Shown here: piece by piece, positions 1 through 20,217 of the stretch | Layout of the letters: the number at the start of each line of letters is the position of its first letter | How positions within the stretch are numbered: position 1 is the stretch's first letter | DNA from: an uncultured archaeon | GTDB taxonomy: Archaea; Asgardarchaeota; Thorarchaeia; Thorarchaeales; Thorarchaeaceae | Direction of reading: 5' to 3' | Length of the DNA stretch: 32,000 bases | Assembly (NCBI GenBank): GCA_964354495.1 | Contig: CAYHAA010000006.1 | Coordinates: 120,001 to 152,000, forward strand | The notes under the pieces: model-generated | The model's input: the letters and a program-made list of their open reading frames with translations, nothing else | The model's database searches: none | What the model was told of the DNA's origin: nothing | Position numbers and translations under genes: made by a program

Positions 1-1
1 G

Positions 2-1564: not shown

Positions 1565-1594
1565 AGATCAATCAGCCATACAGGTGAGTCCCAA

Positions 1595-2005
1595 ATGTGG
1601 GAATCCTTCGTTCAGCATACGAGCATCGAGCAAATCGTGAATGATAAGGGACTTGCAAAAGTGGGCGACAATCTAGTGAACCTGTGTTATTCACTGGCCA
1701 AGTCCTTAGTGCTTGGGCACACGACTGGTGAGAAAGTTCGAGACAGTATACTTGCACGTGCAATACGTGGAACATCAGTATATCAGCACATGAACAGGCG
1801 AAGCGATGTTGGAAGAGCTGCGGATGCTTACGAAGCCATCATGGCATACCTGTGGATGACTAATAAGACGACAATCTTTGCTATGGTTGAATCCCTTGCG
1901 AGTTTCCTTGATATCGATAGCAGCACCAGTCGAGTAAAAGAAGGTGAGCGTGCTGCCATCTCCTTCCAGCATCTCTTGGAACAGAACATCGCACATCTTC
2001 CATAG
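1595..2005 (+). CDS. Archaeal ribonuclease III-like protein (Ribonucleas_3_2-type, no dsRBD)
   Basis: LAKVGDNLVNL and ADAYEAIMAYLW resemble the two RNase III signature helices. Position between rpoL and tfs is typical. Confidence 0.78.
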   Translation: MWESFVQHTSIEQIVNDKGLAKVGDNLVNLCYSLAKSLVLGHTTGEKVRDSILARAIRGTSVYQHMNRRSDVGRAADAYEAIMAYLWMTNKTTIFAMVESLASFLDIDSSTSRVKEGERAAISFQHLLEQNIAHLP

Positions 2006-2086
2006 TGCAATCACACTCACCAATGACCCAGTCAAAACGCTTAATTGACAACTGCATACAGCCGCTCTGAAGTGGTGTGCAGTACC

Positions 2087-2416
2087 ATGGAGTTCTGTGA
2101 CAAATGCGGTGCCATGATGGTAGTCTTTACGCAAGATGATGGTAGTAAGGTCCTGAGATGTCGAAGTTGTCAACACACCAAGAAAATCAAGGGTGAGATG
2201 AGAGTATCTCAGAACATTGAGAGGAGTCCGCATGACAAGATCGTTGTTGTTGAGGATGACTCCATTCCTATGCCTGTCACAAAAGCCATTTGCCCTAAGT
2301 GCGGTAACACCGATGCATACTACTGGACACTGCAGACACGCCGTGGTGATGAGGGTGCAACTGAGTTCTATAGGTGCACCAGCTGCAAACATACATGGCG
2401 CTACTATGGTGGATAA
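2087..2416 (+). CDS. tfs: Transcription factor S (TFS/RpoM)
   Basis: N-terminal FCDKCG..CRSC and C-terminal CPKC..QTRRGDE..FYRCTSC Zn ribbons, with the catalytic DE dipeptide retained. Start moved to ATG 2087 (MEFC). Confidence 0.95.
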   Translation: MEFCDKCGAMMVVFTQDDGSKVLRCRSCQHTKKIKGEMRVSQNIERSPHDKIVVVEDDSIPMPVTKAICPKCGNTDAYYWTLQTRRGDEGATEFYRCTSCKHTWRYYGG

Positions 2417-2440
2417 ACAACCACCGCAAGAAGTAACACA

Positions 2441-2447
2441 TTTATAG
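2441..2447 (+). promoter_or_regulatory. Candidate TATA box for the RPA3-PCNA unit
   Basis: TTTATAG in the only sizeable intergenic gap of the operon, preceded by an A-rich tract. Confidence 0.4.
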
Positions 2448-2520
2448 CCTCGCTTATGGTTCAGTCAGAGGATAGTTGGTAGTCCCCACTGCCTAGGACA
2501 ATGAATAGGGCGCTTGTGAC

Positions 2521-2892
2521 TTGACAGAGGAGAAGAAGTTCATCCGAAAGAAACCATCACGACTCACAACTATTCGTGAGATTTCCCACTCATCTCGTGG
2601 ACCTGTCAGAGTACTGGGAATTGTTGTCGATTCCAGCCCTGGTTCAGCCCTTGTACAGGACCTCTATGATGAGGATGTCAAAAAAGCAGGAAGTATATGG
2701 GTCAGCGTAGAGGGAACTTTTGAGCTTAAGAAGAAGTATCTCATCATTGGTGAATTGACCGAGAAGACTGATGGTCAAAGCAAAATACCATGGTTGAATG
2801 CGACACTTGTGCATGATATAGATGCGCTCGATATTGCTCTGTATAAGGAAGTTTTAGACTTTGAGGGGAAGGTAACCAAAACAATGAGTTGA
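2521..2892 (+). CDS. Replication protein A small subunit (RPA14/Rpa3)-like OB-fold protein
   Basis: RKKP..TIREI, VRVLGIVV, LIIGEL and a C-terminal helix A..VHDI..LD..LYKEV match the pattern I recall for Thermococcales Rpa3 and eukaryotic RPA14. Size (123 aa) also fits. Confidence 0.65.
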   Translation: MTEEKKFIRKKPSRLTTIREISHSSRGPVRVLGIVVDSSPGSALVQDLYDEDVKKAGSIWVSVEGTFELKKKYLIIGELTEKTDGQSKIPWLNATLVHDIDALDIALYKEVLDFEGKVTKTMS

Positions 2893-2902
2893 TGGAGGAA
2901 TC

Positions 2903-3658
2903 ATGATGTTTCATGCAACACTTGATAGCACAAAGATATGGAAACAGATTGTAGACGCGCTTGCTACACTACTCACTGAGATTCATTTTATTGTATCTGA
3001 AGGTGGACTCACGTTGACGCAGTATGACTCTTCCAGAGCTGCTATGGTCTATCTCTTTCTACCAAACAGTGTCTTCCAGGAGTATGTCTGCACTGGGGAG
3101 TACAATATTTGTCTTGGCGTTGATGAGCTTGTGAAAGTGAGCAGACGCATGGCTGGAGATGACCGGTTGGAGTTTGATCTGGACGAAAACGAGAAACGCC
3201 TCAAGATTCGAATGATTGGCCAGGTTGAGCGAACCTTCAGACTCCAACTCCTTACGCCACCGGAGGAACGAATCCAAAGCCTGAATCCTGGCTTTGAGGT
3301 TCGCGCAGAGCTGCTCTCAGACAGTTTTAAGCAGGCTGTGAGGGACATAGGGGTGGTTTCAAACCACCTGCGTGTGACAGCAACAAGTGACTCATTGACG
3401 TTTACTGGGGCAGGCGATACTGGAGAAGCTGAGGTTCTTCTCAAGTTGGGTGATAACTCACCACTCCATCGCCTAAGTGTCAACGACAGAGCATCATCGA
3501 CGTATGCACTCAGTTACCTGACCGAAATAAGTAAGGCCATCTCTAGTGATAGTCTGACTCTGCAGATGACAGAGGACAAACCTCTCGTACTTGAGTTTGC
3601 TATTGCGGAGAATGGAGAGATGCGGTTCCTTCTTGCTCCACGAGTCGAACGGAGATGA
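2903..3658 (+). CDS. pcn: DNA sliding clamp PCNA, paralog 1
   Basis: About 250 aa with D.SRAAMV.L.LP, KP..LEF and F.LAPR motifs. GGAGG RBS upstream. Confidence 0.95.
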   Translation: MMFHATLDSTKIWKQIVDALATLLTEIHFIVSEGGLTLTQYDSSRAAMVYLFLPNSVFQEYVCTGEYNICLGVDELVKVSRRMAGDDRLEFDLDENEKRLKIRMIGQVERTFRLQLLTPPEERIQSLNPGFEVRAELLSDSFKQAVRDIGVVSNHLRVTATSDSLTFTGAGDTGEAEVLLKLGDNSPLHRLSVNDRASSTYALSYLTEISKAISSDSLTLQMTEDKPLVLEFAIAENGEMRFLLAPRVERR

Positions 3659-3790
3659 TAGACCCGGTTTTCGATAATATACTGGCACCAGTTTCTTCCG
3701 AGAAGTACATTTTAATGGCTATGGATACTGCTAATATCTGACGAAACGAGGTCTAGTCAAAGGTCTCTCATGCAACTGGAGGAAAAGAAT

Positions 3791-4543
3791 GTGTTCCACG
3801 CAACCTTGGACAGTACGAAAACCTGGAAGCAGATAGTTGATGTCTTAGCGACTCTTCTCACTGAGGCACATCTTCGAGTTTCTGAGTCCGGAATGACGCT
3901 ACGCCAGCTAGACTCATCCAAAGCAGCAATGGTCGATCTGAATCTCCCATCTGCTGTCTTTCAGGAGTATGCATGTAAGGGAGAACATGACATCTGCTTG
4001 GGGATTGATGAGCTTACCAGAGTGAGCAAGCGAATGGGCGGAGATGAACGCCTAGAGTTCAATCTCAATGAGAATCGACTAGAGATTAAGATGATTGGTC
4101 AGGCAGAACGAGAGTTCAGGCTTCAACTTCTCACTCCTCCAGACAGTCAGACCAACAAACCAAGTATGACTTTTGAAGTCAAGGCTGAAATGTACGCTGA
4201 TGCATTCAAACAGGCAATCAAGGACATAGGCGTGGTTTCAAGCCATGTGAAAATTCTCGCCGAGAAGAACATGCTCACCTTCTCGGGAGAGGGTGATACT
4301 GGTGAGGCACGAGTCACTCTTTCAACTGAGGGCGAAGATCCAGCTCTCTTTCAATTGAAGGTCGGAAGTGGGCAAACTGCTGCCATGTACGCGCTTAATT
4401 ATCTCTCTGAGATATCAAAAGCTATTCCAAGTGATAGCATAGTCCTCCAGCTCACTGCGAACAAGCCAATGATGCTGGAGTTCACAATAGCCGAGGCTGG
4501 CAGTATCAGCTTCATCTTAGCACCACGTGTTGAACGTAGATAG
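3791..4543 (+). CDS. pcn: DNA sliding clamp PCNA, paralog 2
   Basis: About 60% identical to paralog 1 by manual alignment. Start placed at GTG 3791 behind GGAGG, giving the same MFHATLDSTK N-terminus. Confidence 0.95.
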   Translation: MFHATLDSTKTWKQIVDVLATLLTEAHLRVSESGMTLRQLDSSKAAMVDLNLPSAVFQEYACKGEHDICLGIDELTRVSKRMGGDERLEFNLNENRLEIKMIGQAEREFRLQLLTPPDSQTNKPSMTFEVKAEMYADAFKQAIKDIGVVSSHVKILAEKNMLTFSGEGDTGEARVTLSTEGEDPALFQLKVGSGQTAAMYALNYLSEISKAIPSDSIVLQLTANKPMMLEFTIAEAGSISFILAPRVERR

Positions 4544-4662
4544 ACTTACCTGCCTATCCCACTACAGGACGTGAGTCACCTACGAAAAACACCAACCCGT
4601 CCACATTTCATTGGCTCTCATAGCAGAAACATAAAAGTCCACAAGGGGAATGGTCTTCTCCG

Positions 4663-6057
4663 ATGTCAAAAAGCACTCATGGAATGACAACAACAATCAT
4701 GAAGCTAAGGCTTCTTTTCCACGAGTATTACTTAGAGGGCCCTCAATCCTTAGACGTACCAGAGCGAATCAACGCTCGAGAGTTTGCTCTGCAGACTTGG
4801 GAGCATAACTGGCACTGCATGGAACGAAGAAGTAAAGATGACTCGGGCAAAGAAACCCGAATCGGCTGCGGGAAATCAGGAAAGTCTTTCCAGCCTCTGA
4901 AGGAGTGTCCGAACTGCGGATCGGGAGAGGTCAAATCCACCAGTTGGATTCGGCATGTTGGTTACCGCTCTCAAGATGAGCTCCTGGCAGGTCTGACCAA
5001 CTCCGCGCCTCAGAGTGTGTACCATTCTGCAGCATTCTATGGAGTTCCAATTGCAACACACATGCATGAAAAGGAGTGGCAGGGCGCGGAGCTAGTCTTC
5101 GATATAGACGCAGACCACTTGGACCTGAAATGTGCAAATGACCATGATGCTTGGCGGTGCAATAACGTTGACTGCCATAAGACAGGAACTGGAGCTGCAC
5201 CGGAAACGTGCCCGGTCTGCGGAAACAGCAGTTTCAATACGAGGAAATGGATTTGCGATAAATGCCTCAATGAAGCACGAAGGTATACCAAAAAGCTCTA
5301 TGACGACTTCTTGGTTGGGGACTTCGGATTTGACCCAGGGAAAATCCAGCTCAATTACAGTGGACATAGAGGCTACCACGTGCGAGTTCGTGATTCTCAA
5401 GTATATGCATTGGACTCCAATGCGCGCGTAGAGATAGTCCACTATGTAATGGGCCTCGGATTCAAAAACGATAAGGCCAAGGCCATAGTCACTGAGCATA
5501 ACGTTGAATTGATACCAGGCCGTGATGTCCCTGGCTGGACTGGACGGGTTGCTGATGCTATGATTGAGTTCATCCAAACCATTGACGCTTACTCGGGTAC
5601 AGAGAAATGGGTCTCTGCCCTGAAGGATCATAGGGTTGATGCAGTGGATGGCCTTAAACGAGGTAGACCAGTTCTGAGCAAGAACGTGAAGGGAGTTGGT
5701 GTCAAGTATTGGCAGGAGATTGCAGAGAAGGCGGTTGAGCGCTATGGTAGTAAGATCGACAGACCAGTCACTCATGATATTCATAGAGTCATTCGTCTCA
5801 TTGGGAGTCTAAATGGAAAGACTGGCTTGGTCGCATCTTTACTCACACGCGACAAACTTGACGATTTTGATCCATTCAGCGAATCAATTGCTTTCAATCA
5901 GGGCACCATGAAGGTCGTGTTTCATAAAGGGTCACGTGTTCCCTCGTTCAAGATTGCCAGCGAAGTCTACGGTCCATTCACAGAGGAAGAACCCGTGGAG
6001 TTGCCCATGGCTGCAGCAGTGTTTGTACTCTGTAAGGGGGTTGCATCGATTGAGTGA
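4663..6057 (+). CDS. priS: DNA primase small (catalytic) subunit with two Zn-ribbon insertions
   Basis: REFA, IRH, ELVFDIDAD, YSGHRGYH and IDRPVTHDIHRVIRL motifs. pcn-priS-gins synteny. Confidence 0.95.
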   Translation: MSKSTHGMTTTIMKLRLLFHEYYLEGPQSLDVPERINAREFALQTWEHNWHCMERRSKDDSGKETRIGCGKSGKSFQPLKECPNCGSGEVKSTSWIRHVGYRSQDELLAGLTNSAPQSVYHSAAFYGVPIATHMHEKEWQGAELVFDIDADHLDLKCANDHDAWRCNNVDCHKTGTGAAPETCPVCGNSSFNTRKWICDKCLNEARRYTKKLYDDFLVGDFGFDPGKIQLNYSGHRGYHVRVRDSQVYALDSNARVEIVHYVMGLGFKNDKAKAIVTEHNVELIPGRDVPGWTGRVADAMIEFIQTIDAYSGTEKWVSALKDHRVDAVDGLKRGRPVLSKNVKGVGVKYWQEIAEKAVERYGSKIDRPVTHDIHRVIRLIGSLNGKTGLVASLLTRDKLDDFDPFSESIAFNQGTMKVVFHKGSRVPSFKIASEVYGPFTEEEPVELPMAAAVFVLCKGVASIE

Positions 6058-6058
6058 T

Positions 6059-6697
6059 ATGAATTACAACGGTATCAAGAGCGCTTGGGAAGATGAAACA
6101 GAGAAGGAAGCGCTCCAAGATCTGGCGGATCTTCGACTCAGCAAGATGATTCAATATCTCTCTAGTGTCCGTCTATCACTAGCAGCAACCAGTGCCGATG
6201 AACCCCTTCAAGCGGACATACTGACCCAAGAGGCACTGAATCTAGAGTTTATGCTCGAAGATCTACTGGCACTTCGTAGAGATAAGATTGTGAAATCGGC
6301 ACTTGCCGGACGGCGTCCGACAGGCGATATGACCCTTACTGAGGAAGAGCTCTATAATAGGGCTCAGCGTGCATTTGATGGTCATTCAGAGTTCATGAAG
6401 GAATCGCTCACAGGATTGGTTTCATCTCAACCAAAGGCCAGGTCGAAAAAGGACAAGGAAGACAGGGAGGGAACCGAGGCAGTTTCAGTCAAGGCGCCTG
6501 ACGAGATGGACTATGTTGTCGTGAGATTTCTCCGACCCATTGATGATGCTTTCATGGGACTTGATGAACTGACGTATGGCCCATTCAAGAAAGAAGATGT
6601 TGCTACAATACCTACTGCGAATGCGAGAATCTGGTTACGTGATGGCACTGCTGCCCGTGTAGTGCTTGAGGATGGTGTCATAGCAGATGAAAAATGA
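6059..6697 (+). CDS. GINS complex subunit Gins51 (Gins15)
   Basis: Helical A domain plus C-terminal B domain VVVRFLRPI..FMG.D..TYGPF..EDV.TIP..NA. ATG lies 1 nt after the priS stop. Confidence 0.9.
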   Translation: MNYNGIKSAWEDETEKEALQDLADLRLSKMIQYLSSVRLSLAATSADEPLQADILTQEALNLEFMLEDLLALRRDKIVKSALAGRRPTGDMTLTEEELYNRAQRAFDGHSEFMKESLTGLVSSQPKARSKKDKEDREGTEAVSVKAPDEMDYVVVRFLRPIDDAFMGLDELTYGPFKKEDVATIPTANARIWLRDGTAARVVLEDGVIADEK

Positions 6698-6983
6698 GCA
6701 GGCCATTGATGAACTGAACGGCCTCCTCCAATTCTTGAATGAGCAACTGGATGAGATTAAGTCTCTCCATAAGAAATTCCTAGTTGCTCTTACAGGAGTT
6801 CTCAGACTAGCAAACGATGATGGCTCTTTATTGACAAAGCTCCACGGCGAACCAGAGAACCTTAGGTCCTACCTGATTCAGATGGCCATGAAAATATCTG
6901 ATACAACTACGCAATCATATGGGATTATTAGACAAAGAATCGAAACCATCATCGACTCAGCGCTCACAGACAGAAAGTCCTAA
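6687..6983 (+). CDS. Hypothetical all-helical protein (98 aa)
   Basis: Overlaps the end of gins51 by 11 nt and has amphipathic helical composition. No family recognised. Confidence 0.7.
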   Translation: MKNEQAIDELNGLLQFLNEQLDEIKSLHKKFLVALTGVLRLANDDGSLLTKLHGEPENLRSYLIQMAMKISDTTTQSYGIIRQRIETIIDSALTDRKS

Positions 6984-7008
6984 GAGCCAATGAGTTCAGA
7001 CACAATTC

Positions 7009-7200
7009 ATGCTCAGTCACCGAACACTCTTTCTGGTTATTGGATTCATCTGCATTGTACTTACCATAATCGGCGGTCTGATGTACCCTATGAATACAAT
7101 GAGCATCTTCGAGATCAGTGCCTATGTCTTGACCGTGTCCCTTGGTATAGTCGGTCTGCTGTTTCTCCTTCACCAAAGAGGCTTTGATGAATCCCTTTGA
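7009..7200 (+). CDS. Small two-TM membrane protein (63 aa)
   Basis: Two hydrophobic stretches (LFLVIGFICIVLTIIGGLM; ISAYVLTVSLGIVGLLFLL). Fills the gap on the operon strand. Confidence 0.55.
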   Translation: MLSHRTLFLVIGFICIVLTIIGGLMYPMNTMSIFEISAYVLTVSLGIVGLLFLLHQRGFDESL

Positions 7201-7235
7201 ATTGACTCTGCAGCCACTGTGTCATGTCTATAAAC

Positions 7236-7243
7236 TTTTAATA
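7236..7243 (+). promoter_or_regulatory. Candidate TATA box for the hdr cluster
   Basis: TTTTAATA preceded by TATAAAC, about 60 nt upstream of the hdrC ATG. Confidence 0.45.
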
Positions 7244-7304
7244 CAGGCTTCGAATGCGCACTGTAACTGGCGAAGTGATTCGTCGCATGCATGTGGTGTA
7301 CACC

Positions 7305-7847
7305 ATGGCTGAAACTGAAGAACGGACTGGTCCTCCTGTCACACTAATCGACCCCATTGATATGTCGAAACTGGACACAAAGTTTCGAGAGGAAATCAAA
7401 AGCATGCCAAATGGCGAGGAACTGTCGGCCTGTTTTGCGTGTTCGACTTGCACTGCTGCATGTCCAATTGCGAACATATGGAAATACAAGCCACATCAAT
7501 TGATCCGAATGATGCTTCTTGGGATGCGCGAAGAGGTTCTCATGTCCAATGAGATATGGCTCTGTCTGACATGTTACCAATGCCAAGAACGGTGCCCTCA
7601 GAAGGTCCGTGTGACTGACATCTTCTTCGATTGCAAGAACTTAGCTGCGGAACAAGGTAAGGTCCCGCCGAAGGTTGTCGCACTTGCCAAGGAACTGCTT
7701 ACTAAGGGCCAACTGTACTCAGTGACTGCAGACTGGGAACGAGAAGACATGGGTCTAGAACCTGCGGTTCCGGGTCTCTCAGTCGAAGCTGTGAAGACTA
7801 TCCTCGGGGGTACTCGAATTAGGAAGCTTGCGGGTGGTGAGCAATAA
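7305..7847 (+). CDS. hdrC: Heterodisulfide reductase subunit C
   Basis: CFACSTCTAACP and CLTCYQCQERCP [4Fe-4S] motifs and IWLC context. Start placed at ATG 7305 behind GGTG. Confidence 0.93.
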   Translation: MAETEERTGPPVTLIDPIDMSKLDTKFREEIKSMPNGEELSACFACSTCTAACPIANIWKYKPHQLIRMMLLGMREEVLMSNEIWLCLTCYQCQERCPQKVRVTDIFFDCKNLAAEQGKVPPKVVALAKELLTKGQLYSVTADWEREDMGLEPAVPGLSVEAVKTILGGTRIRKLAGGEQ

Positions 7848-7848
7848 G

Positions 7849-8715
7849 ATGCCCGTTTACAATCTTTACATCGGCTGCAGTGTCCCCGTGAACTATCCGA
7901 ATTATGAGGCTGCCATGCATAAAGTAGCTCAGGCTTTCGATATGGAACTTCTGTATATGGATGGAGTAGCGTGCTGTGGAAGTCCAAATCTGAGAGCTAT
8001 CGACCACCTGGGCTGGGTAACAGTCAATGCAAGGACCCTTGCAATTGCTGATAAGAATGGTCATGATATTGTCACCCCCTGCAATGGCTGCTTTGGGTCC
8101 CTAAAGGAGGTCTATCACCTTCTCAAGCATGATGACAAGCTCAGAAACAAGATTAACCAAGGCCTGAAGAAGGAAGGCCTTGAATTCAAGGGAACAACAA
8201 CACCGCGTCATTTCGTTGAAGCGCTCTATAATGATATTGGAATTGATGAAATCCGGAAGAAGATCACGAAGCCGCTGGATGGAGTAGGAATAGCGATACA
8301 TTATGGATGCCATCTTCTTCGTCCTGTGGATGTCACTGAGTTCAAGCCCGAATATCTTCAAGAACTCGTTGAAGTCACAGGCGCAACAGTAGTAGAGTAT
8401 CCATTATGGAAGCAGTGCTGCGGAGCCACCGTGCTACCAGTAGACGAATCTCTAGGAATACGGCTTGCTCGCGACAAGCTGAAATCCATGAAAGAGGCCG
8501 GCGCTGTCTTTGCGACCGTGGTATGTCCTGCGTGTGGCAATCAATTGGACCTACAACAGCTTGGCCTCAAGGAATCATATGGAGAGGAGTACAGTCTCCC
8601 TGTGTTGCTCTATCCCCAGATACTGGGGTTGGCAATTGGACTTGATGAAGAAGCAGTTGGTCTCAGCATGAATAGGGTTCCTGCTAATCCAATTCTGGAC
8701 CATCTAGGTAGCTGA
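7849..8715 (+). CDS. hdrB: Heterodisulfide reductase subunit B
   Basis: Two CCG domains with all expected ligands: GC, CCG, PCNGC, HYGCH, CCG, CPAC. ATG is 1 nt after the hdrC stop. Confidence 0.95.
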   Translation: MPVYNLYIGCSVPVNYPNYEAAMHKVAQAFDMELLYMDGVACCGSPNLRAIDHLGWVTVNARTLAIADKNGHDIVTPCNGCFGSLKEVYHLLKHDDKLRNKINQGLKKEGLEFKGTTTPRHFVEALYNDIGIDEIRKKITKPLDGVGIAIHYGCHLLRPVDVTEFKPEYLQELVEVTGATVVEYPLWKQCCGATVLPVDESLGIRLARDKLKSMKEAGAVFATVVCPACGNQLDLQQLGLKESYGEEYSLPVLLYPQILGLAIGLDEEAVGLSMNRVPANPILDHLGS

Positions 8716-8728
8716 GGTGTGATTCATT

Positions 8729-9973
8729 ATGTCCAACCCAGTTCTCATAATTGGTGCTGGTGTTGCAGGGATGACAGCAGCAATCGAGCTAGCAGACTCA
8801 GGAATCAAGACAGTACTTGTCGAAGAACTCTCTACAACTGGTGGAAATGCCCTCGACTTGTACAAGGCCTTCCCCACTGATGATTGTTTCTATTGCTTTG
8901 AAGGAAATCGTTGGCGTCCTGGAATCCGAAAGTGTTTCTACAGAAGTGCATTGGTAGATCAGCCAAACATCGATTTGAAGATGAACAGTCGGGTGGAAGA
9001 GATATCCGGCAATCCAAGCAGTTTTAGCATAGCACTTGCCATTGGGCCACAGTACATTGATCCGATGAGATGCATCTTGTGTGGCCTCTGCCTTGAGAAA
9101 TCCAAATCCTTCAGTTTCATATCACCGCAGTGCCAACCACAGGCTGTCATCTACAAGCCTGATTTAAGAGACGAAGGCACTCAGATCGCTGCCAAAGAAT
9201 GCCCCACACAGGCGATCAATCTCGATGCAGAGCCCTCCAAGGAAACAATCACAGTCTCTGATATCATTATAGCCACAGGGTTTCACGAGATGAAACCATC
9301 AGAAATTGATGAGTATGGCTATGGCACACACCCCAACATAATCACACAGCTTGAGTTGGCCAAGATCTTGGACCCGAACGGTCCTTCTGGAGGCGTGCTT
9401 CTACGCCCATCGGACGGGGCCCCGGCTAGACGAGTGATGATGATTCAATGTGTAGGTAGTAGAGATGAAAACTACTATCCATACTGCTCGAAGATATGCT
9501 GCATATTTGCTCTGAAACATGCTAATATTCTGACCCGAGAGCGCGAGAATGTACAAGTCAGCGTGGTCTACATGGATATACGAACCTATGACAGATATGA
9601 GAGGTACTATCGTGAGACCAGGCAGTCGGGCGTAGAATACATAAGAGGACGAGTAACGCGCGTTAATCCCAAAGAAGATGGTAGTCTCGCTGTAGTGGTG
9701 TACGATTCTCTCTTGAATGCATATCTCCGGTTCTCAGTAGACTTGTTTGTACTGTCCTCTGCATTAGAGCCCTCTGCAGGAAGTGGACACATCATAGAGA
9801 CTCTCAGACTGAAGTCTGCTAGCGGATTCATCGGCCCGCTATCTGCTGATGATCCGGTTGTTGTCGGAAATCATATATTTGCCTGTGGCACTGCACTTGG
9901 TCCCGCTGAGGTCCCTGAGAGCGTCACGCAAGCACGAGCTGTTGTTTCCAAGATATTGCAGAGCAGGAAGTGA
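8729..9973 (+). CDS. hdrA: Short HdrA-like FAD/[4Fe-4S] protein (QmoA-like size, 414 aa)
   Basis: GAGVAG FAD motif, FPTDDC..C, inserted CILCGLC..CP, QCVGSR..CSKICC, YMDIRT. Lacks the N- and C-terminal ferredoxin parts. Confidence 0.88.
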   Translation: MSNPVLIIGAGVAGMTAAIELADSGIKTVLVEELSTTGGNALDLYKAFPTDDCFYCFEGNRWRPGIRKCFYRSALVDQPNIDLKMNSRVEEISGNPSSFSIALAIGPQYIDPMRCILCGLCLEKSKSFSFISPQCQPQAVIYKPDLRDEGTQIAAKECPTQAINLDAEPSKETITVSDIIIATGFHEMKPSEIDEYGYGTHPNIITQLELAKILDPNGPSGGVLLRPSDGAPARRVMMIQCVGSRDENYYPYCSKICCIFALKHANILTRERENVQVSVVYMDIRTYDRYERYYRETRQSGVEYIRGRVTRVNPKEDGSLAVVVYDSLLNAYLRFSVDLFVLSSALEPSAGSGHIIETLRLKSASGFIGPLSADDPVVVGNHIFACGTALGPAEVPESVTQARAVVSKILQSRK

Positions 9974-9980
9974 TGCCAAG

Positions 9981-12149
9981 ATGAACAATGACAACAAATC
10001 AGCAGTCCTCCTATGCACCTGCGGAAAGCAACTACAGCTCTCGTTTGGCTTCCTGCAATCTGAGATTGAGAAGATTGACTCAGCTGTTTCGACCACGGTA
10101 CACGACCAAGCATGTCAAGAGGAAGGCCTGACCAAGATTGCCGGGCTCTTAAAGGCAAATGGAGGCCGTCTTGTAATTGCAGCATGCACCAGCCAGAAGA
10201 TTCAGCCCCGCATCAACAGATATCTCAGGCAACAGGGGATTGATGGATCCCAGATTCAATATGTCAATATTCGAGAGCATTCCGCTTGGGTACACCGCGA
10301 TGTTACGAAAGCAAGCAAGAAGTCTCTCGACATGATTCGTGGAACGCTTGCGAGGTCAAAGAGCTCAGTACCTCTCCTAATAGAGAGCAAAGAAGTCAGT
10401 AGACATGTGACAGTGATAGGTGGTGGAATTGCTGGTATCGAGTCTGCATTAAGCCTCTCAAATCTTGGCTATGAAGTGGCCTTGCTTGAATGCAGCGATT
10501 GTCTTGGTGGTCATCTTCTACATCTTCCAATGGTTGCTCCCTCTGGTAAATCTGGCATGGAAGTCCTGAGCGGAAGGCTCGAAGCTATTGAGAGTAATAC
10601 TAGCATCACTGTGATGACAAAAACCTCGGTCAAATATGTGACTGGGGAAATGGGTGACTTTACTGTAAAGTATGTCACAGAAGGCGATGATGAGAAGTCT
10701 ATTAGGACCTCGGCTGTGGTCCTTGCAATGGGCTTCAAGGAATTTGAGCCAATTGGGATGAATGAGTACAGGTACGGGAGGAATCCCGATGTGATAACCC
10801 AGTTTCAGCTTTCCCGTATGCTCTCCGAGGGTGTTCTTGGCAGGCCATCTGATAACAGTCCCATCAAGGAGGTTGTTATGGTCCAGTGCGTAGGAAGCAG
10901 GTCCGAAGACTACAAACGTGACTGCAGCAAACTCTGCTGCACTTTTGCCATTGACAACTCCTTGGAACTCATGAAACGGATACCTGATGTCACTGTTCAC
11001 ATTGTATACATTGACATTCGAGTACCCTTTGAGAATGAGATGGTCTACAAGGAATCTCGTGATAAGGGAGTAGACTATATCCGCGGGCGGATTAGTATGG
11101 TCTGGGAGCATGATGGCAAGACCCATGTCAGAATCTATGACTCTCTGATGGACCAGTATCTAGAAGTTCCTGCTGACTTGCTTGTTCTCGCGACTGCAAT
11201 ACTTCCTCCTGATGGAGTTGTAGAGCTGTCTGAAACCCTTGGCTATGCAGTTGAAGATGATGGACATGTAAAGGAACTCTACGGTAAACTTAGACGCAAC
11301 GAGACTCGTCGGCGTGGAGTTATTGCTGTCGGAGGAGTCACGCGCCCACAGTTTGTGTCTGAAGCCATCATAGATGCTCAAGCTGGAGCTCTCATGGTCC
11401 ACAATGAGCTACACGGTGGAGCGATTGAATCAGTCGCACGTGGATCCGTTCTTGACGTTGATGACTGTGTTGGATGTAGTCTCTGTGCCCAACAGTGTCC
11501 TCGTGGAGTCCCACTCATGATTGAACAGACCGAAGCAGAAGAATCTGATGAAGAGCAAAAGATTCTCTTCAAGGCTGCACTTGATACTCTGAATTGCCAT
11601 GCATGTGGGGTGTGTCAGAGCCTATGTCCATCTGGGGCCATTCAGCTTAATTTTCTCTCCAACGAACAATTGTGGTCCGAGATAGCTGCAGTACTTCAGG
11701 ATGCAGGCCCAGAGGATCCGATTACGCTATGTTTCTATTGCGAAGAATGTTCGGTATCGACAATAGATATTGTTGGAACTAGGAGAATGGAATACCCTAC
11801 TAATACACGCCTGATTCCAGTTCCCTGTGCCGGTCGTGTGAGTATCATAGACATTCTCAAGGCTTTCGAACATGGTACTAGCACGGTCATGATTGCAGCA
11901 TGCGAGAAGGACCGTTGTCATATTGGGGGGACTGGCAATGAGATTGCTCAGGTACAAGTAGATGTTGCTCGAGACATTCTGAATGCCATTGGTTGGAGGG
12001 GAGAACGTGTAGACATGTTCAGAATGTTCAGCGCAGAACCTGAACGCTTTACCAAAGCTGTCAATGAGATGGTAAGGCGTGCCAAGGATTTGGGCCCTAC
12101 GCCTGTCCATGAGGGAACTGCTGGCAAGTGGAAGGAGGTGAGCAAGTGA
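9981..12149 (+). CDS. hdrA: HdrA-MvhD fusion protein (QmoB-like architecture, 722 aa)
   Basis: N-terminal CTCG..ACT, GGGIAG, QCVGSR..CSKLCC, two CxxCxxCxxxCP motifs and a C-terminal MvhD domain (CFYCEEC, VPCAGRV, ACEKDRCH). Start placed at ATG 9981. Confidence 0.9.
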   Translation: MNNDNKSAVLLCTCGKQLQLSFGFLQSEIEKIDSAVSTTVHDQACQEEGLTKIAGLLKANGGRLVIAACTSQKIQPRINRYLRQQGIDGSQIQYVNIREHSAWVHRDVTKASKKSLDMIRGTLARSKSSVPLLIESKEVSRHVTVIGGGIAGIESALSLSNLGYEVALLECSDCLGGHLLHLPMVAPSGKSGMEVLSGRLEAIESNTSITVMTKTSVKYVTGEMGDFTVKYVTEGDDEKSIRTSAVVLAMGFKEFEPIGMNEYRYGRNPDVITQFQLSRMLSEGVLGRPSDNSPIKEVVMVQCVGSRSEDYKRDCSKLCCTFAIDNSLELMKRIPDVTVHIVYIDIRVPFENEMVYKESRDKGVDYIRGRISMVWEHDGKTHVRIYDSLMDQYLEVPADLLVLATAILPPDGVVELSETLGYAVEDDGHVKELYGKLRRNETRRRGVIAVGGVTRPQFVSEAIIDAQAGALMVHNELHGGAIESVARGSVLDVDDCVGCSLCAQQCPRGVPLMIEQTEAEESDEEQKILFKAALDTLNCHACGVCQSLCPSGAIQLNFLSNEQLWSEIAAVLQDAGPEDPITLCFYCEECSVSTIDIVGTRRMEYPTNTRLIPVPCAGRVSIIDILKAFEHGTSTVMIAACEKDRCHIGGTGNEIAQVQVDVARDILNAIGWRGERVDMFRMFSAEPERFTKAVNEMVRRAKDLGPTPVHEGTAGKWKEVSK

Positions 12150-14410
12150 GTCAATCAACACCTGAGAAGGCTATTGCACCCAAGAGACAACGAATGTTGG
12201 ACATGGTATTAGCACTAGGTGGCCTCAAAGAAGAGTCCACAATTCCCCTCAGCAAAGTCAAGGATGAACTTGAGAATCTAAAGGCAGAGCTTGCACCCCT
12301 GACTGACACAATCATATCCTTTCCCGATTCCTATTTTGAGAAATTCTTGGATACTGCAAAGAAGAGCAACATTGTTGCTGAGATAAGCGATCGAGGCATT
12401 CTGAAGGAGTCAATCTCGAATCTTGATCAGGCCCTGTCAAAAGGTGAATCTGTGCCACTAAAGGCGCTGAATAGAATACTTACAGACACACTCAGCAGAA
12501 TGACTGAGGTAGAGGCGCGTCAAGACGTCAGTGTAGATGTCGATATGACTGCAACCACCTCGACCATATCGGGTCTGGTTTCTGAAATCGAGTCAATCAC
12601 AGATGGTTTCGAGAAAGCCGCTGAAACAGAGGCTGAGTCTGCTAGGTCTGAATTGGTCGCGCTCGTCGAATATCTTGAAAGAGTCAAAGAAAAGGTCGAA
12701 ACAGATCCTGACACAGCTCTAGATGAGCTTCAAAAGTTAGGGTCCCAGACTCGTTACGGTCCTGGACTAAGAGCAATAGCACAAGTAAAACGAGGGAAGC
12801 GAGAAGGTCGAATCGATGATGCACGGTTCAACAAGATAGTCAGAGAAAATATACTCACCGAGGTCAACCGTGGAATAATCCTGTTCATACTCAATAAGAT
12901 GGGATCCAAGACAGTCGTACAGGCCGGGGAGCTCATGCAGACCTCTCCTCAGGCTATACAGAGCGCTCTTGTGACTATGATTCAGAGGGGAGAGGTTGAG
13001 ATGGTCGGTCTTGATGGTGATGCTCCTGTCTTCTCAAGGGTGCTCACAGAAACACCCAGCTCAACACTCCTCATGAAAAGGATTGTTCAACAGGTTCGGG
13101 GGATGGTAAAATCATTAGAAGGCGAAACCGCTGAAACTATGAATGAGTTACTTGGCAAGTTACAAGTACTACTCAAACGCCTCCAGATACTTGGAGCCTA
13201 CAACGAGACTCTCCTATCTGAGCGTATCAACAAGCTTCGAGAGACTGTTGATAGTGTCACCGAGGCAGTACTCGGCGCTCAGACTTCCGAGGATGCTGAG
13301 AATCTCAGGCTTCTCATATCTGCAGGACTTGAAGCGTTCGCCCGCTTTCGTCTTAAAATAGCCCTAGAAAAGGGTCCTGCCCTTGTTTCAGGTGGTAATG
13401 TCTATGGTGAAAAACTAGACTCTGAAGTCTACAAAACCATAATGGACACCTATCTTGATAATGAGCTTGAGAGAGGCACAATCTTGATTCTCATTCGGGA
13501 ATTGGGAGCTCTCACAGCACATGATCTGGCAGAGAGGACGAATATTCCACCAGATAGAATACTCAGACATCTACTCAGAATGAAGCGCGATGAACTTCTC
13601 ACAATTGCTGGTGAGAATCATGGGTATATTCTCTATGATGTTCCGAGGGCTCTTTCAGAGGCTGAGATCACAATACAGACTATAAGTAGTCTAGCTCTAC
13701 AACTGTCTGAGGCCAAACAAGAGCTTCAGAGGATACTGAGCGATCTGAAAGCGTCCGATATCGGCAGACTTGCCAACTCATTAGAAGTCTTTTCAAAGTC
13801 ACGTGACAAGCTCGCATCAGTCCGTGTTCATGGTGCTGCAATTGATGAATCCACCTTGAAAGATGTAGAGGATAAGATACGGTCTGCGGTTCTACTCACC
13901 TATCGGACACGTGCTAAGATTCCAAGCACCAGACCAAAGGTGACCCTTGAGGATCTATTGGATGTTGATGTGCCATCTGTTCTTGACGAGTACAGAAGCC
14001 TAATGGGTTATGCACCTCTTCTGGGGTTTGGAACAATAGAGTGGGAACAATCAAGGTGCCTCGGTTGCAGGTCATGTGAAATTGCCTGCCCAGAAGATGC
14101 GATTGAACTGAAGCCACGAATAGGGATACACCGATTCTTCGAGATATCCGATGATGCGCTCTCCCAATTGCCATCAAACCGGTCACTGTTCTATAGGACC
14201 ATTCAGAATCTCGCTACGATAAAGCCAGTAGAAGAGATTCCCCTTGAAAAGGAAGTTCCAGGATTCGGCACAGTAGAGGTGGACCTCTGGCTATGCGTTG
14301 CTTGCCGTATGTGTGTAAGACGATGTCCAGGTCCTGAAGGTGGAGCATTGGAGCTGGAGCTGAAATGGAGCTTGCCAGAAATAGTGAAGCACATCACGTC
14401 AACTTCATAG
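12146..14410 (+). CDS. Uncharacterised 754-aa protein: helical bundles, two winged-helix-like repeats and a C-terminal split 2x[4Fe-4S] ferredoxin
   Basis: GTG start overlaps the hdrA TGA behind AAGGAGGTGA. Contains CLGCRSCEIACP and CVACRMCVRRCP and an internal repeat of about 80 aa. Confidence 0.85.
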   Translation: MSQSTPEKAIAPKRQRMLDMVLALGGLKEESTIPLSKVKDELENLKAELAPLTDTIISFPDSYFEKFLDTAKKSNIVAEISDRGILKESISNLDQALSKGESVPLKALNRILTDTLSRMTEVEARQDVSVDVDMTATTSTISGLVSEIESITDGFEKAAETEAESARSELVALVEYLERVKEKVETDPDTALDELQKLGSQTRYGPGLRAIAQVKRGKREGRIDDARFNKIVRENILTEVNRGIILFILNKMGSKTVVQAGELMQTSPQAIQSALVTMIQRGEVEMVGLDGDAPVFSRVLTETPSSTLLMKRIVQQVRGMVKSLEGETAETMNELLGKLQVLLKRLQILGAYNETLLSERINKLRETVDSVTEAVLGAQTSEDAENLRLLISAGLEAFARFRLKIALEKGPALVSGGNVYGEKLDSEVYKTIMDTYLDNELERGTILILIRELGALTAHDLAERTNIPPDRILRHLLRMKRDELLTIAGENHGYILYDVPRALSEAEITIQTISSLALQLSEAKQELQRILSDLKASDIGRLANSLEVFSKSRDKLASVRVHGAAIDESTLKDVEDKIRSAVLLTYRTRAKIPSTRPKVTLEDLLDVDVPSVLDEYRSLMGYAPLLGFGTIEWEQSRCLGCRSCEIACPEDAIELKPRIGIHRFFEISDDALSQLPSNRSLFYRTIQNLATIKPVEEIPLEKEVPGFGTVEVDLWLCVACRMCVRRCPGPEGGALELELKWSLPEIVKHITSTS

Positions 14411-14501: not shown

Positions 14502-15701
14502 ATGGTCGATTTCAACCTATCCAATGAACAGCTGGAGCTAAGGAACAAGGCGAGAGCGTTTGCACAGGAGTATATGATTCCGTATGCACACTACTATGAC
14601 AAGACTGGGAAGTTTCCACGTCCCATAATCAAGAAGTGTTGGGACGAAGGGCTCATGAACCTTTCAATCCCAAGAGAGTATGGGGGACAGGGTCTAGGTT
14701 CAATCGAAGAATGCGTCACGGTAGAGGAAATGGCTGCCGGCTGCGCAGGGATGACAACAAGCATCTACGTTAACTCTCTAGGAGCTGAGCCGATTCTGGT
14801 GGCGGGCACTTCCGAACAGAAGGAGAAATACCTTCGACCACTCACTGAAGACCTCAAGTTCATCAGTTTCGCTTGTTCTGAACCAGGAATGGGTTCTGAT
14901 GTCGCCGGGATTCAGACCCAGGTCAAACGAGAAGGCGACGTCTATGTCTTGAATGGATCCAAGTTCTGGATCACCAACGCTCCACAGGCAGACACCTTCA
15001 CAGTCTTTGCTAGTCTTGATCCGAGTAAGAGACACAAAGCATTATGCGCGTTCATCGTTGATGCTACCACTCCGGGAGTGAAGACTGGCAGGCCAGTTGA
15101 GAAAATGGGTCATAGGGCCTCCACAACGTCAGCAGTGATGTTCAAAGATGCTAAGGTCCCTGTCGAAAACCTGTTGGGCGCCGAAGGAGAAGGATTCAAG
15201 ATAGCGATGAAGACATTCGCAAAGACACGCCCCTCAATCGCTGCATTTGCTACTGGCCTTGCTCGATCAGCGATGGAATATGCTCGTGACTATGTGAGTA
15301 AGAGGGATGCCTTTGGCGAGAAACTCCACAACTTTGAGGCCATTCAGTTCAAGCTTGCTGAGATGTATATGAAGATTGAAGCAGCACGACTGCTCTACCT
15401 CAAGGCTGCTTGGACGGCGGATTTCGTTGGTGATTCTACTATTCCTGCAAGTGTTGCAAAGGCATTTGCTACAGATGCTGCAATGGAAATAGCCAGTGAA
15501 GTTGTCCAGATTCACGGGGGTTATGGATACATAGATCAGTACCCTGTGGAGAAGCTGTTTCGGGATGCAAAACTGTACCAAATCTATGAGGGAACGAGTG
15601 AGGTTCAACGATTGATACTCTCCCGTTATCTTCTCAGCGGATATGAACCTGCGATGGGCAAAATCCCACGTTGGTATAGCAATGAGCCGCCAGATTTGTA
15701 A
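14502..15701 (+). CDS. Acyl-CoA dehydrogenase (short-chain/butyryl-CoA type)
   Basis: SEPGMGSD, LNGSKFWITN, KMGHRAS, QIHGGYGY and IYEGTSEVQR (catalytic Glu in the C-terminal position). Confidence 0.95.
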   Translation: MVDFNLSNEQLELRNKARAFAQEYMIPYAHYYDKTGKFPRPIIKKCWDEGLMNLSIPREYGGQGLGSIEECVTVEEMAAGCAGMTTSIYVNSLGAEPILVAGTSEQKEKYLRPLTEDLKFISFACSEPGMGSDVAGIQTQVKREGDVYVLNGSKFWITNAPQADTFTVFASLDPSKRHKALCAFIVDATTPGVKTGRPVEKMGHRASTTSAVMFKDAKVPVENLLGAEGEGFKIAMKTFAKTRPSIAAFATGLARSAMEYARDYVSKRDAFGEKLHNFEAIQFKLAEMYMKIEAARLLYLKAAWTADFVGDSTIPASVAKAFATDAAMEIASEVVQIHGGYGYIDQYPVEKLFRDAKLYQIYEGTSEVQRLILSRYLLSGYEPAMGKIPRWYSNEPPDL

Positions 15702-15796
15702 TGCTAGAGTCCAAACAGAATATGGTTTGGCGTCGTTCTCAACCTTCAAATCCGAGCGAATGACAACCTGCAAGAAGAGAGATGGAGATCCAGAAG

Positions 15797-16612
15797 ATGC
15801 CAGAGCTACCAGATATCTATGTTCTCGCCGAGAGTATGAATTCCGCCTTGAAGGGCAAGACAGTCATAGGAGCACAAGTCAATCAGCCAAAATGCCTGAA
15901 CATCTCAGCTAGCAGGTTCAAGAAATCAGTCCAGGGTAGGAGAATTGACAAAGTACGGCAACGTGGCAAATGGATCATTGCATCCTTGGATGGTGGGTGG
16001 ACTCTTGCACTCAATCTTGGGATGGGTGGTGAGGTCCGTCTACATGGTTCCAATGAAACTCCGGACTCCAAGCGCGAACGTGTCGTTCTGAACCTGGATA
16101 CTGGGGAACAAGTCTGGATTCACCATTGGTGGTTTGGTCATGTGCATCTTCTACAATCGACAGATATCACCAAGCACAGGCAGCTATCTGTCCTTGGGCC
16201 AGAGCCTCTTGATGATACATTCACAGTCGAGAGACTCTCCGAGATGTTGAAGAGCAAACGTGGGCGCATCAAGAGCTACCTTATCGACCAGAGTTTCATT
16301 GCTGGCCTAGGGAATGTCTACGTCCAAGATACTCTCTGGTATGCCAGACTCCATCCAAACCGTAGGGCAGACACATTAGTATCTGAAGATATCAAACGTC
16401 TACATACAGCAATTCAGCAGGTACTGAAACAGGGAATACATTATGGGGGTGGCCCTGGTGAACAAGATATCTGGGGCAATCCTGGAAAGTACTCAAAGCA
16501 TCTTCAGGTTGGGTATCGAACTGGGAAACCTTGCCCTATATGCAATACAGCTGTAGAGGAATTAAGAGTCGGACCAACAACCAGCTATATCTGTCCGAAG
16601 TGCCAAGTGTAG
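15797..16612 (+). CDS. Fpg/Nei-family DNA glycosylase (divergent)
   Basis: N-terminal MPELP, RGK, LGMGG, H2TH motif AGLGNVY and Zn finger CPIC..CPKCQ. Start moved to ATG 15797 so that Pro2 is N-terminal. Confidence 0.92.
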   Translation: MPELPDIYVLAESMNSALKGKTVIGAQVNQPKCLNISASRFKKSVQGRRIDKVRQRGKWIIASLDGGWTLALNLGMGGEVRLHGSNETPDSKRERVVLNLDTGEQVWIHHWWFGHVHLLQSTDITKHRQLSVLGPEPLDDTFTVERLSEMLKSKRGRIKSYLIDQSFIAGLGNVYVQDTLWYARLHPNRRADTLVSEDIKRLHTAIQQVLKQGIHYGGGPGEQDIWGNPGKYSKHLQVGYRTGKPCPICNTAVEELRVGPTTSYICPKCQV

Positions 16613-16623
16613 AACGAAACACG

Positions 16624-16992
16624 ATGTTGATTCGAAAGCTGAATGAAATCAAAAGAATAAATGCGCTTGATAACACACATATACGTGAGATTCTCAATCC
16701 CTTACATGATTCGCGTTCTCTCTTCCTTGGTTACAGCCTAGCTCATGCTGCACTGAAACCAAATCAGAGATCGCTTCAACACAGGTTTCACGAGGCCTCG
16801 GAGGTCTATCACATTCTGGGCGGTCGAGGAATGATGCATGTCGATGACGAGGCGGTTGACGTCTCGATTGGAGATACGATCTACATACCGCCAATGTCAG
16901 TGCAGTGGATCGAGAGCATGGGTCCTGATGACCTGGAGTTTCTCTGCATCGTGGATCCTGCATGGAAACCAGATGCTGAAGAACTGGCATAG
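16624..16992 (+). CDS. Cupin-domain protein
   Basis: H.H..ASEVYHIL.G.G and GD.IYIPP...Q.I cupin motifs. Start placed at ATG 16624. Confidence 0.88.
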   Translation: MLIRKLNEIKRINALDNTHIREILNPLHDSRSLFLGYSLAHAALKPNQRSLQHRFHEASEVYHILGGRGMMHVDDEAVDVSIGDTIYIPPMSVQWIESMGPDDLEFLCIVDPAWKPDAEELA

Positions 16993-18586: not shown

Positions 18587-18997
18587 ATGCCTCCAAAGGA
18601 CATGAACATCATCATATTTGGTTGCCAACAATGTATGTACGCTGCCTCCGACTTAGCAGGGACCATGAAGCTGCAGTACGATGCGTCGAGCAGGATCATC
18701 AGGATGCCGTGCACCGCAAGGCTCGACATCAACTTCCTTCTGAAGGCATTGCAGGAGGGTGCAGACGGAGTGCTTGTCGTCGGGTGTCATCCAGGAGACT
18801 GCGCATTCAAGACTGGAAATCTGGGGGCAGAGAGGCGGGTCCGTTTCACAAAGAAGCTGATCGAGCAGTTGGGCCTTGACGAGCGCCGCGTGAAGATGGT
18901 GTTCGTTTCTGCAGCAGAGGGCGACAAGTTTGCGGCCGAGGTCAACAAGTTCGCAGAGGAGATACGTGCGATAGGACCGAACCCAATCAGACTGTGA
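18587..18997 (+). CDS. mvhD: [2Fe-2S] hydrogenase delta subunit MvhD/FlpD (intact)
   Basis: GCQQC..AASDLAG, MPCTAR, GADGVLVVGCHPGDC, V.SAAEG.KF, GPNP. Confidence 0.95.
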   Translation: MPPKDMNIIIFGCQQCMYAASDLAGTMKLQYDASSRIIRMPCTARLDINFLLKALQEGADGVLVVGCHPGDCAFKTGNLGAERRVRFTKKLIEQLGLDERRVKMVFVSAAEGDKFAAEVNKFAEEIRAIGPNPIRL

Positions 18998-19858: not shown

Positions 19859-20217
19859 TTTCGTGCAATGCATGTATGCCGCCTCTGACCTCGCAGGTAC
19901 GATGAAGTTGCAGTATGACGCCACCAGCCCAATCATCAGGAGGCCATGTACCGCCAGACTGGACATCGATTTCCTCCTGAAAGCATTACAGGAGGGAGCA
20001 GACGGAGTGCTGGTTGTCGGGTGCTTAGGGAAATTGCGCATATATGATCGGGAATCTGAGGGACAATCGGCGTTTCAGGTTTGAAGGCAACCAGATTCAA
20101 ATGAAAGAAGCGAAAATGGAATTCATGAATGTCACTGAGCATAATCTAATTAATACCGAGGTCAACAAATCCACTGAGAAAATTCGGGCGATTGGACCGA
20201 ACCCAATCAGACTGTGA
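19859..20217 (+). pseudogene. mvhD: mvhD remnant, codon 11 to stop, frameshifted
   Basis: 49/53 aa identical to the intact copy over QCMY..VVGC. A small deletion near 19865 removes the first Cys. A net 2-nt deletion at about 20025-20034 shifts the frame, and the shifted frame continues CAYMIGNL..EVNK..IRAIGPNPIRL* to TGA 20215-20217. Confidence 0.92.

Follow-up and report, generated by a model that had tools for sequence, protein, structure and literature searches.

A putative iron-sulfur adaptor subunit on the MvhD branch of an Hdr-like complex in Thorarchaeaceae

Proposals for how Asgard archaea gain energy give a central place to Hdr-type flavin-based electron bifurcation, which thereby also matters for syntrophy models of eukaryogenesis. 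The MvhD branch of heterodisulfide reductase (Hdr)-like complexes leads to the MvhAG hydrogenase in methanogens and to BamI and BamGH in class II benzoyl-CoA reductase. Here we describe a gene, called X below, that follows hdrA-mvhD in an hdr operon of an uncultured archaeon of the family Thorarchaeaceae. The operon lies on a 32,000-nucleotide (nt) stretch of DNA, referred to as the window (assembly GCA_964354495.1, contig CAYHAA010000006.1, positions 120,001 to 152,000 of the forward strand). X (12146..14410, + strand) is an open reading frame (ORF) for a helical protein of 754 residues with two winged helices and a split ferredoxin. Our data suggest, with a probability that we put at roughly 0.7, that X is a subunit with structural and electron-relay roles in a soluble Hdr-like complex for flavin-based electron bifurcation.

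A cryo-EM study of the class II benzoyl-CoA reductase of Geobacter metallireducens showed that BamF is an MvhD homologue more than 100 residues longer than known MvhD proteins, and that its winged helix-turn-helix contacts the iron-sulfur (Fe-S) subunit BamI, from which electrons enter the HdrA-like BamE at its C-terminal ferredoxin domain and thence reach the [2Fe-2S] cluster of BamF (bioRxiv 10.64898/2026.04.10.717634). In our literature search this April 2026 preprint was the sole text linking MvhD to a winged helix, and a PDB sequence search with long MvhD returned only short MvhD chains. The Hdr-like module of the same enzyme exchanges electrons with the electron-transferring flavoprotein (ETF) and acyl-CoA dehydrogenase, ETF docking at the HdrBC-like end. 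By analogy, X looks as if a BamF winged helix and an Fe-S relay of the BamI kind had been united in one chain that is separate from MvhD, and our complex model, in which the ferredoxin of X sits against MvhD and the C-terminal ferredoxin domain of HdrA, would have the same topology. X differs from BamF and BamI in that the module is detached from MvhD, duplicated and joined to a di-cluster ferredoxin and a helical N-terminus of ~200 residues, and in that no BamGH-like NADH module is encoded nearby.

Two other described systems can be compared with this locus. In the MvhD-MvhAG/MvhB polyferredoxin assembly of methanogens (PDB 5ODC and relatives), Fe-S proteins also wire a donor to HdrA through MvhD, and the source genome of the window has, on another contig, a canonical cluster of hdrA, mvhD, an ORF for a small winged-helix protein of 80 residues, mvhG and mvhA. 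X, in contrast, comes without hydrogenase, FlpD or polyferredoxin architecture; a Pfam search finds no FlpD match in X, the FlpD domain lying in the upstream protein (2e-32). QmoABC of sulfate reducers resembles the locus in its domain matches, which give a short HdrA-like protein and a long HdrA-like protein ending in an MvhD domain. However, HdrC and HdrB here replace the membrane protein QmoC, there are no aprAB genes, and X is an additional component.

Modules of X and their relatives

X directly follows the gene for a long HdrA fused to MvhD. Its GTG start codon (12146-12148) overlaps the TGA stop codon of hdrA-mvhD (12147-12149) in the sequence GTGA, and a Shine-Dalgarno-like GGAGGTGA (12134..12141, + strand) stands 4 nt 5' of the start. 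The initial annotation, made from the sequence of the window, took X to be translationally coupled to hdrA-mvhD with a strong ribosome-binding site, and both elements can indeed be read there. The protein collection holds a record identical to the 754-residue X.

The AlphaFold2 (AF2) model of X, built on a 35-sequence alignment, has a mean predicted local distance difference test score (pLDDT) of 76.7 and a predicted template modelling score (pTM) of 0.39, the latter fitting a multi-domain protein. In the order of the chain, X comprises an all-helical N-terminal region (residues 1-205; 12146..12760, +), winged-helix module 1 (residues 221-300; 12806..13045, +), a helical linker, module 2 (residues 380-500; 13283..13645, +), a second helical linker, a poorly modelled segment (residues 599-625) and a split 2x[4Fe-4S] ferredoxin (residues 626-754; 14021..14407, +). 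K13, R14, L22 and L24 of the N-terminus are nearly invariant. When the N-terminal 218 residues were folded by themselves, a PDB structure search matched them to nothing more specific than helical hairpins (best Z 7.3, below the informative range for helical proteins), and a protein-atlas feature search gave no usable match. By hhalign the N-terminus forms no repeat with either linker (probability 1-12%), and the comparison of linker 1 with linker 2 reached 51%, from which we read no repeat signal.

Both modules are modelled as a long helix, a strand, two helices and a beta hairpin with pLDDT of ~80-88. A repeat of ~80 residues with winged helix-turn-helix spacing had been proposed at 12806-13050 and 13410-13660. 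The repeat is recovered at those coordinates when family alignments of residues 221-307 and 422-507 are compared by hhalign (probability 98.6%, E 7.7e-16), and AF2 with DSSP gives the winged-helix order in both copies. The two modules are homologous at the profile level, whereas single-sequence BLASTP of the two segments misses the repeat (E 0.48). Module 1 also matches the winged-helix part of an alignment of MvhD C-terminal extensions and ~115-residue stand-alone proteins, the first row of which is module 2 of X itself (hhalign E 1.3e-16). Module 2, which is of the MvhD-extension type, consists of a helix, the motif GNVYGEK (13394-13414) and winged helix 2; module 1 has KREGRIDD in place of GNVYGEK.

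Module 2 aligns over its full length with stand-alone proteins of ~115 residues and with the C-terminal extensions of long MvhD proteins. Proteins that combine FlpD with a winged helix (P0167, P0184, P0198 and P0199) have Bathyarchaeota and an NC10 bacterium among their sources. Common to the relatives of module 2 are an amphipathic helix of the FRLR type, GNVYGEK and a winged helix like that of ArsR. An independent search by shape in the ESM Atlas superposes residues 381-503 of X on stand-alone clusters of 117-119 residues (template modelling (TM) score 0.80-0.87, root-mean-square deviation (rmsd) ~2 Å) and on clusters of 234-254 residues that join FlpD to a helix-turn-helix in Thermodesulfobacteriota and Promethearchaeota (TM 0.51). 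The likeness of the segment L..F...RL...GNVYGE plus winged helix to the extension of long MvhD proteins had first been suggested in the initial annotation; the sequence searches and the ESM Atlas agree with it. The module also recurs as a separate gene: a winged-helix protein of 115 residues is encoded between hdrA and mvhG/mvhA-like hydrogenase genes, and in loci of other Asgard families (L052 and L053) a winged-helix piece lies directly 3' of mvhD.

The ferredoxin of X carries two cysteine motifs (14057-14092 and 14294-14329), C638-x2-C641-x2-C644-x3-C648-P preceded by GFGTIE and C717-x2-C720-x2-C723-x3-C727-P preceded by GFGTVE. This confirms the earlier description of a GFGT(I/V)E ahead of each CxxCxxCxxxCP and a long insert between the two. 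All eight cysteines are invariant in the 35 sequences, down to ~20% identity, and Fer4_7 matches residues 637-728 with 37.7 bits (cut-off 27), giving the two motifs of a 2x[4Fe-4S] ferredoxin; both clusters are presumably assembled. The motifs are separated by 68 residues that include a conserved insert of ~50 residues (residues 656-707; 14111..14266, +), which departs from the compact fold of ~55 residues and makes this ferredoxin a split variant.

Split ferredoxins of ~160 residues with the same insert are found as separate proteins and as fusions that carry FlpD on one side or the other (P0164, P0161). One stand-alone form of 158 residues begins 2 nt past a 698-residue hdrA-mvhD, and the piece is found directly 3' of hdrA-mvhD in one locus (L050) and divergently beside an hdrA pair in two others (L049 and L051). 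Because stand-alone and fused forms adjoin MvhD, the two components united in X each recur as a companion of MvhD. The winged-helix module and the split ferredoxin are two almost undescribed families of MvhD-associated modules. We also observed, in several genomes, ORFs of ~317-322 residues with two tandem matches to residues 668-738 of the X ferredoxin (G239:C56:2007-2450, G197:C334:7127-7579), and the ORF in the second of these genomes shares its contig with a large GltD/HdrA-like frame.

A word-indexed search returned at least 245 proteins with 70-89% identity to X, nearly all of 753-760 residues; the named relatives at 70% identity or more are entries called '4Fe-4S dicluster domain-containing protein' from Thorarchaeota, Promethearchaeota or Sifarchaeia. 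The names 'translin family' and 'GrpE', given to some relatives, look like coiled-coil artefacts. An exhaustive search of 50%-identity representatives detected full-length relatives with 22-26% identity in Helarchaeota and Lokiarchaeota, along with short proteins that match only residues ~380-500 and others that match only residues ~620-750. X is present in 76 of the 76 sampled genomes of the source organism's own family. Elsewhere in the phylum-wide sample the full-length protein was found in only two genomes, of two other families, and several other Asgard families have only the ferredoxin (~165 residues) or the winged-helix piece (~120 residues). On this evidence from homology searches, the full-length family is restricted to Asgard archaea.

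Foldseek and a PDB sequence search placed full-length X in no characterised family. Foldseek with the whole 754-residue model against the PDB yielded only weak multi-domain matches (RPC62/C82, MarR/PadR, FwdF), and the PDB sequence search yielded only generic Fer4 motifs such as those of PsaC and FwdG. RPC62/C82 of RNA polymerase III also has several winged helices spaced by helices, a likeness that extends to general architecture only; we rejected it as a homologue of X, since the match has an E value of 8e-4 but a TM of ~0.1, an rmsd of ~30 Å and no sequence similarity.

Predicted docking to HdrA-MvhD and a place in the electron path

In 30 of 30 genome loci, taken from the phylum-wide search for X, tblastn showed that the MvhD domain ends exactly where X begins. 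A survey of gene neighbourhoods, proposed when the gene was first described, therefore finds X next to hdrA-mvhD throughout, rearranged operons included. Three loci labelled Thorarchaeota or Sifarchaeia share the gene order of the window: PCNA, primase, GINS, a small ORF, hdrC, hdrB, hdrA, hdrA-mvhD, X and acyl-CoA dehydrogenase. One Lokiarchaeota and one Helarchaeota locus have the order hdrA(short), hdrA-mvhD, X, hdrC, hdrB and no acyl-CoA dehydrogenase. The junction between hdrA-mvhD and X has thus survived operon rearrangement, since it is kept where hdrCB moved downstream of X. In the latter type of locus (L005 and L006, ~1-5300), two giant HdrA fusion genes (1017-1168 residues, one with FlpD) precede the X operon, and a separate mvhD and an ORF of 93 residues of no known family also lie ahead of it.

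We modelled the last 237 residues of the long HdrA, which hold the C-terminal ferredoxin and MvhD, together with residues 375-754 of X. The interaction prediction score from aligned errors (ipSAE) was 0.87, 0.86 and 0.87, whereas the best of three controls scored 0.00. In calibration, 58 of 80 solved complexes attained the ipSAE mark, as did 2 of 110 mismatched pairs; these counts are only a rough guide here because the alignments were our own. Between runs at least 79% of the contacts are shared, and the pLDDT of the partner is ~61. On the side of X, the modelled interface comprises both cluster motifs and the ferredoxin insert (residues 659-707), the predicted surface on which X would meet MvhD and the C-terminal ferredoxin domain of HdrA. 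On the side of the partner, it comprises the invariant I185-G186-W187, the neighbouring helices and the C-terminal tail of MvhD, together with C11-C21 and C64-P65, the cluster motifs in the ferredoxin domain of HdrA. The invariant or nearly invariant insert residues F665, L675, P676, A690, P694, I698 and G706 all lie in the interface (7/7), and within the insert the interface residues have a mean conservation of 0.68, the others one of 0.46. There is no sign that this result stems from a remembered complex, since the PDB sequence search finds only generic Fer4 motifs. The modelling of X with HdrA-MvhD, which had been suggested from the outset, is supportive of binding and is not proof of it.

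Natural variants bear on the function of X. A variant of 972 residues (P0123) is present on two independent metagenome contigs, and variant frames of 972-998 residues occur in at least six genomes of the source organism's own family, four of them of its genus. In these proteins a GltD-like NAD(P)H oxidoreductase (Fer4_20 and Pyr_redox_2) takes the place of winged helix 1 and linker 1, and the N-terminus and everything from the GNVYGE position onward are retained. The gene context is also unchanged, with a 4-nt overlap with a gene ending in an MvhD domain and the dehydrogenase downstream. Insertion of an electron-input enzyme at this position would be expected of a protein that lies in an electron path and is hard to reconcile with a transcription factor. 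GltD-like inserts are also found inside HdrA-like proteins of the same genomes. We looked for a complementary pattern, in which a free GltD-like protein would be present with canonical X and missing from variant genomes, and found no such pattern; canonical and variant genomes alike have several GltD-like paralogues (~50-55% identity), mostly in large HdrA-like proteins. A second Hdr/Mvh cluster of the source genome (G000:C14:29248-40300) has a gene of this kind, for a 925-residue HdrA-like protein with an inserted GltD-like NAD(P)H module, followed by an hdrC-like gene; ~4 kb further on lie the hdrA, mvhD (160 residues), 80-residue winged-helix ORF, mvhG and mvhA named above.

Based on these observations, we propose a complex that would consist of HdrC, HdrB, the short HdrA, the long HdrA fused to MvhD, and X. 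The ferredoxin of X would dock through its ~50-residue insert onto MvhD and the neighbouring C-terminal ferredoxin domain of HdrA, where it could extend the Fe-S wire of the MvhD branch, and X would mark the site at which the complex takes up or hands over electrons. The winged-helix modules and the helical N-terminus may serve in protein docking or as a scaffold, keeping another redox partner in place in the way that BamF keeps BamI with its winged helix, and would not read DNA. We infer the passage of electrons through the clusters of X, as well as their direction of flow and the outer partner, for which the candidates would be ferredoxin, a separate module that oxidises NAD(P)H, or ETF together with the acyl-CoA dehydrogenase encoded next to X. 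The initial annotation had left two readings side by side, a scaffold or electron-relay subunit of the Hdr complex and a redox-sensing DNA-binding regulator. Module homology, the constant linkage to hdrA-mvhD, natural fusions to MvhD and the complex model support the first of these; the second is disfavoured on the grounds given below.

Several points weigh against the proposed role of X as an Hdr subunit. All of its support is computational, and the ipSAE is the model's own confidence. Conservation of interface and non-interface residues is not significantly different when the whole ferredoxin domain is considered (p = 0.10). The complex model included winged helix 2 and left it outside the interface, and a docking role for the winged-helix modules is therefore drawn from analogy. 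The link to the benzoyl-CoA reductase is itself indirect, the probable homology of module 2 to BamF running through metagenomic clusters of FlpD with a helix-turn-helix. Canonical X has no catalytic domain. Finally, both modules have the winged-helix fold and their family profile matches ArsR/HlyU/SmtB chains (E 1.8e-7); because genuine DNA-binding ArsR/HlyU regulators are matched, the fold is compatible with DNA binding, a point in favour of the regulator discussed below.

If X is an Hdr subunit, its place on the MvhD input branch and the NAD(P)H variants turn the donor of hydrogenase-less Hdr clusters into a testable matter, namely which partner X holds. The winged-helix extension of BamF probably belongs to an undescribed family of docking modules that accompany MvhD more widely, in Archaea as well as Bacteria, and the split ferredoxin with its conserved insert is a second recurrent partner of MvhD. 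A further-reaching and doubtful proposal is that X defines an Asgard-specific type of Hdr complex, whose MvhD branch ends in a modular docking arm and not in a hydrogenase or formate dehydrogenase. Were this the case, the winged-helix modules would recruit interchangeable electron donors or acceptors, acyl-CoA dehydrogenase with ETF in Thorarchaeota and a built-in NAD(P)H module in the variants. The complex, soluble and independent of quinones, could thereby couple the redox chemistry of fatty acids or acyl-CoA to ferredoxin and the substrate of HdrBC by confurcation or bifurcation.

Alternative readings

The alternative that survives best, although we consider it unlikely, is that X binds as modelled but forms the end of the path: a tethered ferredoxin serving soluble carriers, its other parts providing oligomerisation or a scaffold for a dimeric Hdr complex. 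Minimal systems that carry only the ~160-residue split ferredoxin after hdrA-mvhD would fit this arrangement, as would the fact that no winged-helix partner was identified and that the long helices give only coiled-coil-like matches, which agree with dimerisation. However, the family universally has ~600 conserved extra residues that are hard to explain by oligomerisation alone, the GltD-type variants place an electron-input enzyme exactly at winged helix 1, and stand-alone winged-helix modules encoded between mvhD and hydrogenase genes suggest the docking of a partner.

It is less probable still that X links the Hdr complex to an acyl-CoA dehydrogenase, replacing or recruiting ETF, with acyl-CoA oxidation or enoyl-CoA reduction as one arm of the bifurcation. 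A gene for such an enzyme, with the Pfam N, M and C domains of acyl-CoA dehydrogenase (14502..15701, +), lies downstream of X in the window. The dehydrogenase gene follows X in every own-family locus with enough flank and in the GltD variant too, and exchange of electrons between an Hdr-like module and ETF with acyl-CoA dehydrogenase has its precedent in class II benzoyl-CoA reductase. The same precedent argues against X as the link, since ETF docks there on the HdrBC-like end and not on the MvhD end. Moreover, the dehydrogenase is missing beside the Loki- and Helarchaeota homologues, X and the dehydrogenase gene are 91 nt apart in the window, with a possible separate promoter for the latter in between, and the ETF genes of the source genome are on another contig.

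The weakest alternative, which we regard as very improbable, makes X a redox-sensing transcription regulator, whose winged helices would bind DNA, for example the hdr promoter, and whose Fe-S clusters would report the redox state, alone or through contact with MvhD. Fe-S-dependent winged-helix regulators exist, among them IscR and other Rrf2 proteins. X gives Pfam hints of this kind (MarR_2 at residues 244-287 with 27.2 bits, at the cut-off; a weak HTH_24 at 446-485 and a weak HTH_24/Rrf2 across 446-509), and some source annotations name its relatives 'MarR/IscR family regulator'. The modules also share the helix-turn-helix and wing fold and its signature with ArsR/SmtB/HlyU and MarR regulators. 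Those, however, are dimeric DNA binders of 100-150 residues, whereas X is a 754-residue acidic Fe-S protein (isoelectric point 5.1, net charge -21) with neutral to acidic reading surfaces (recognition helix and wing, net charge -2 in module 1 and 0 in module 2), and its modules belong to a subfamily always linked to mvhD. The most conserved part of winged helix 2 is an aromatic/acidic hairpin (Y494, L496, Y497, D498), the clusters lie in an ordinary electron-transfer ferredoxin and not in an Rrf2-type sensor site, and an NAD(P)H oxidoreductase can take the place of winged helix 1. The same module is fused to MvhD in enzymes and is a protein interface in BamF, and X is translationally coupled as the last hdr gene in three Asgard classes. 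The region upstream of the hdr operon (6950-7300) contains no inverted repeat, a conserved motif like the B recognition element (BRE) and TATA box being all that was found there. The annotation of such proteins as MarR, IscR or ArsR regulators is probably misleading.

The hdr operon and other features of the window

The BRE/TATA-like motif before the hdr operon, with the core AAACTTTTAATA (7231..7245, +), is an invariant block in the upstream alignment of the window with three relatives and may act as the promoter of the operon. The first gene, hdrC (7305..7847, +; Fer4_8 and TIGR03290, CoB-CoM heterodisulfide reductase subunit C), encodes 180 residues from the ATG at 7305. Its mechanically called ORF begins at 7254, merely 9 nt past the conserved motif; because of this short distance to the first possible start, and in agreement with relatives of 180-186 residues whose start region is conserved, the ATG at 7305 is probably the true start. 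It is followed by hdrB with two CCG domains (7828..8715, +; PF02754 2e-26; TIGR03288 2.7e-82, under the cut-off of that model), and then by a QmoA-like short HdrA-like flavoprotein of 414 residues (8729..9973, +), which matches positions 140-556 of the HdrA2 model (2e-82). The QmoB-like long HdrA-like protein (9981..12149, +; 722 residues from the ATG at 9981) has matches to HdrA2 (1.2e-136), Fer4_7 and FlpD, in keeping with a C-terminal 2x[4Fe-4S] ferredoxin and the fused MvhD; its relatives have 696-791 residues.

The window has primase, GINS and PCNA genes ahead of the operon, which, with the source names of near-identical proteins, point to an Asgard archaeon of the Thorarchaeota type. Upstream of the operon, an uncalled ORF for 63 residues (7009-7200, +) lies between an ORF for 98 residues (6687-6983) and hdrC. 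It would encode two hydrophobic, probably membrane-spanning helices, and three relatives conserve its DNA without a called gene at that place. Downstream, ~4 kb from X, the window has a stand-alone mvhD (18587-18997, +; 136 residues, FlpD 8.5e-47), of which the relatives have a corresponding copy, and a second, truncated FlpD match near 19866-20027. In the region of 15782-16612 and 16531-16992 (both +), a gene for an Fpg/Nei DNA glycosylase sits between the acyl-CoA dehydrogenase and cupin genes of the window, whereas in the relatives the cupin gene directly follows the acyl-CoA dehydrogenase.

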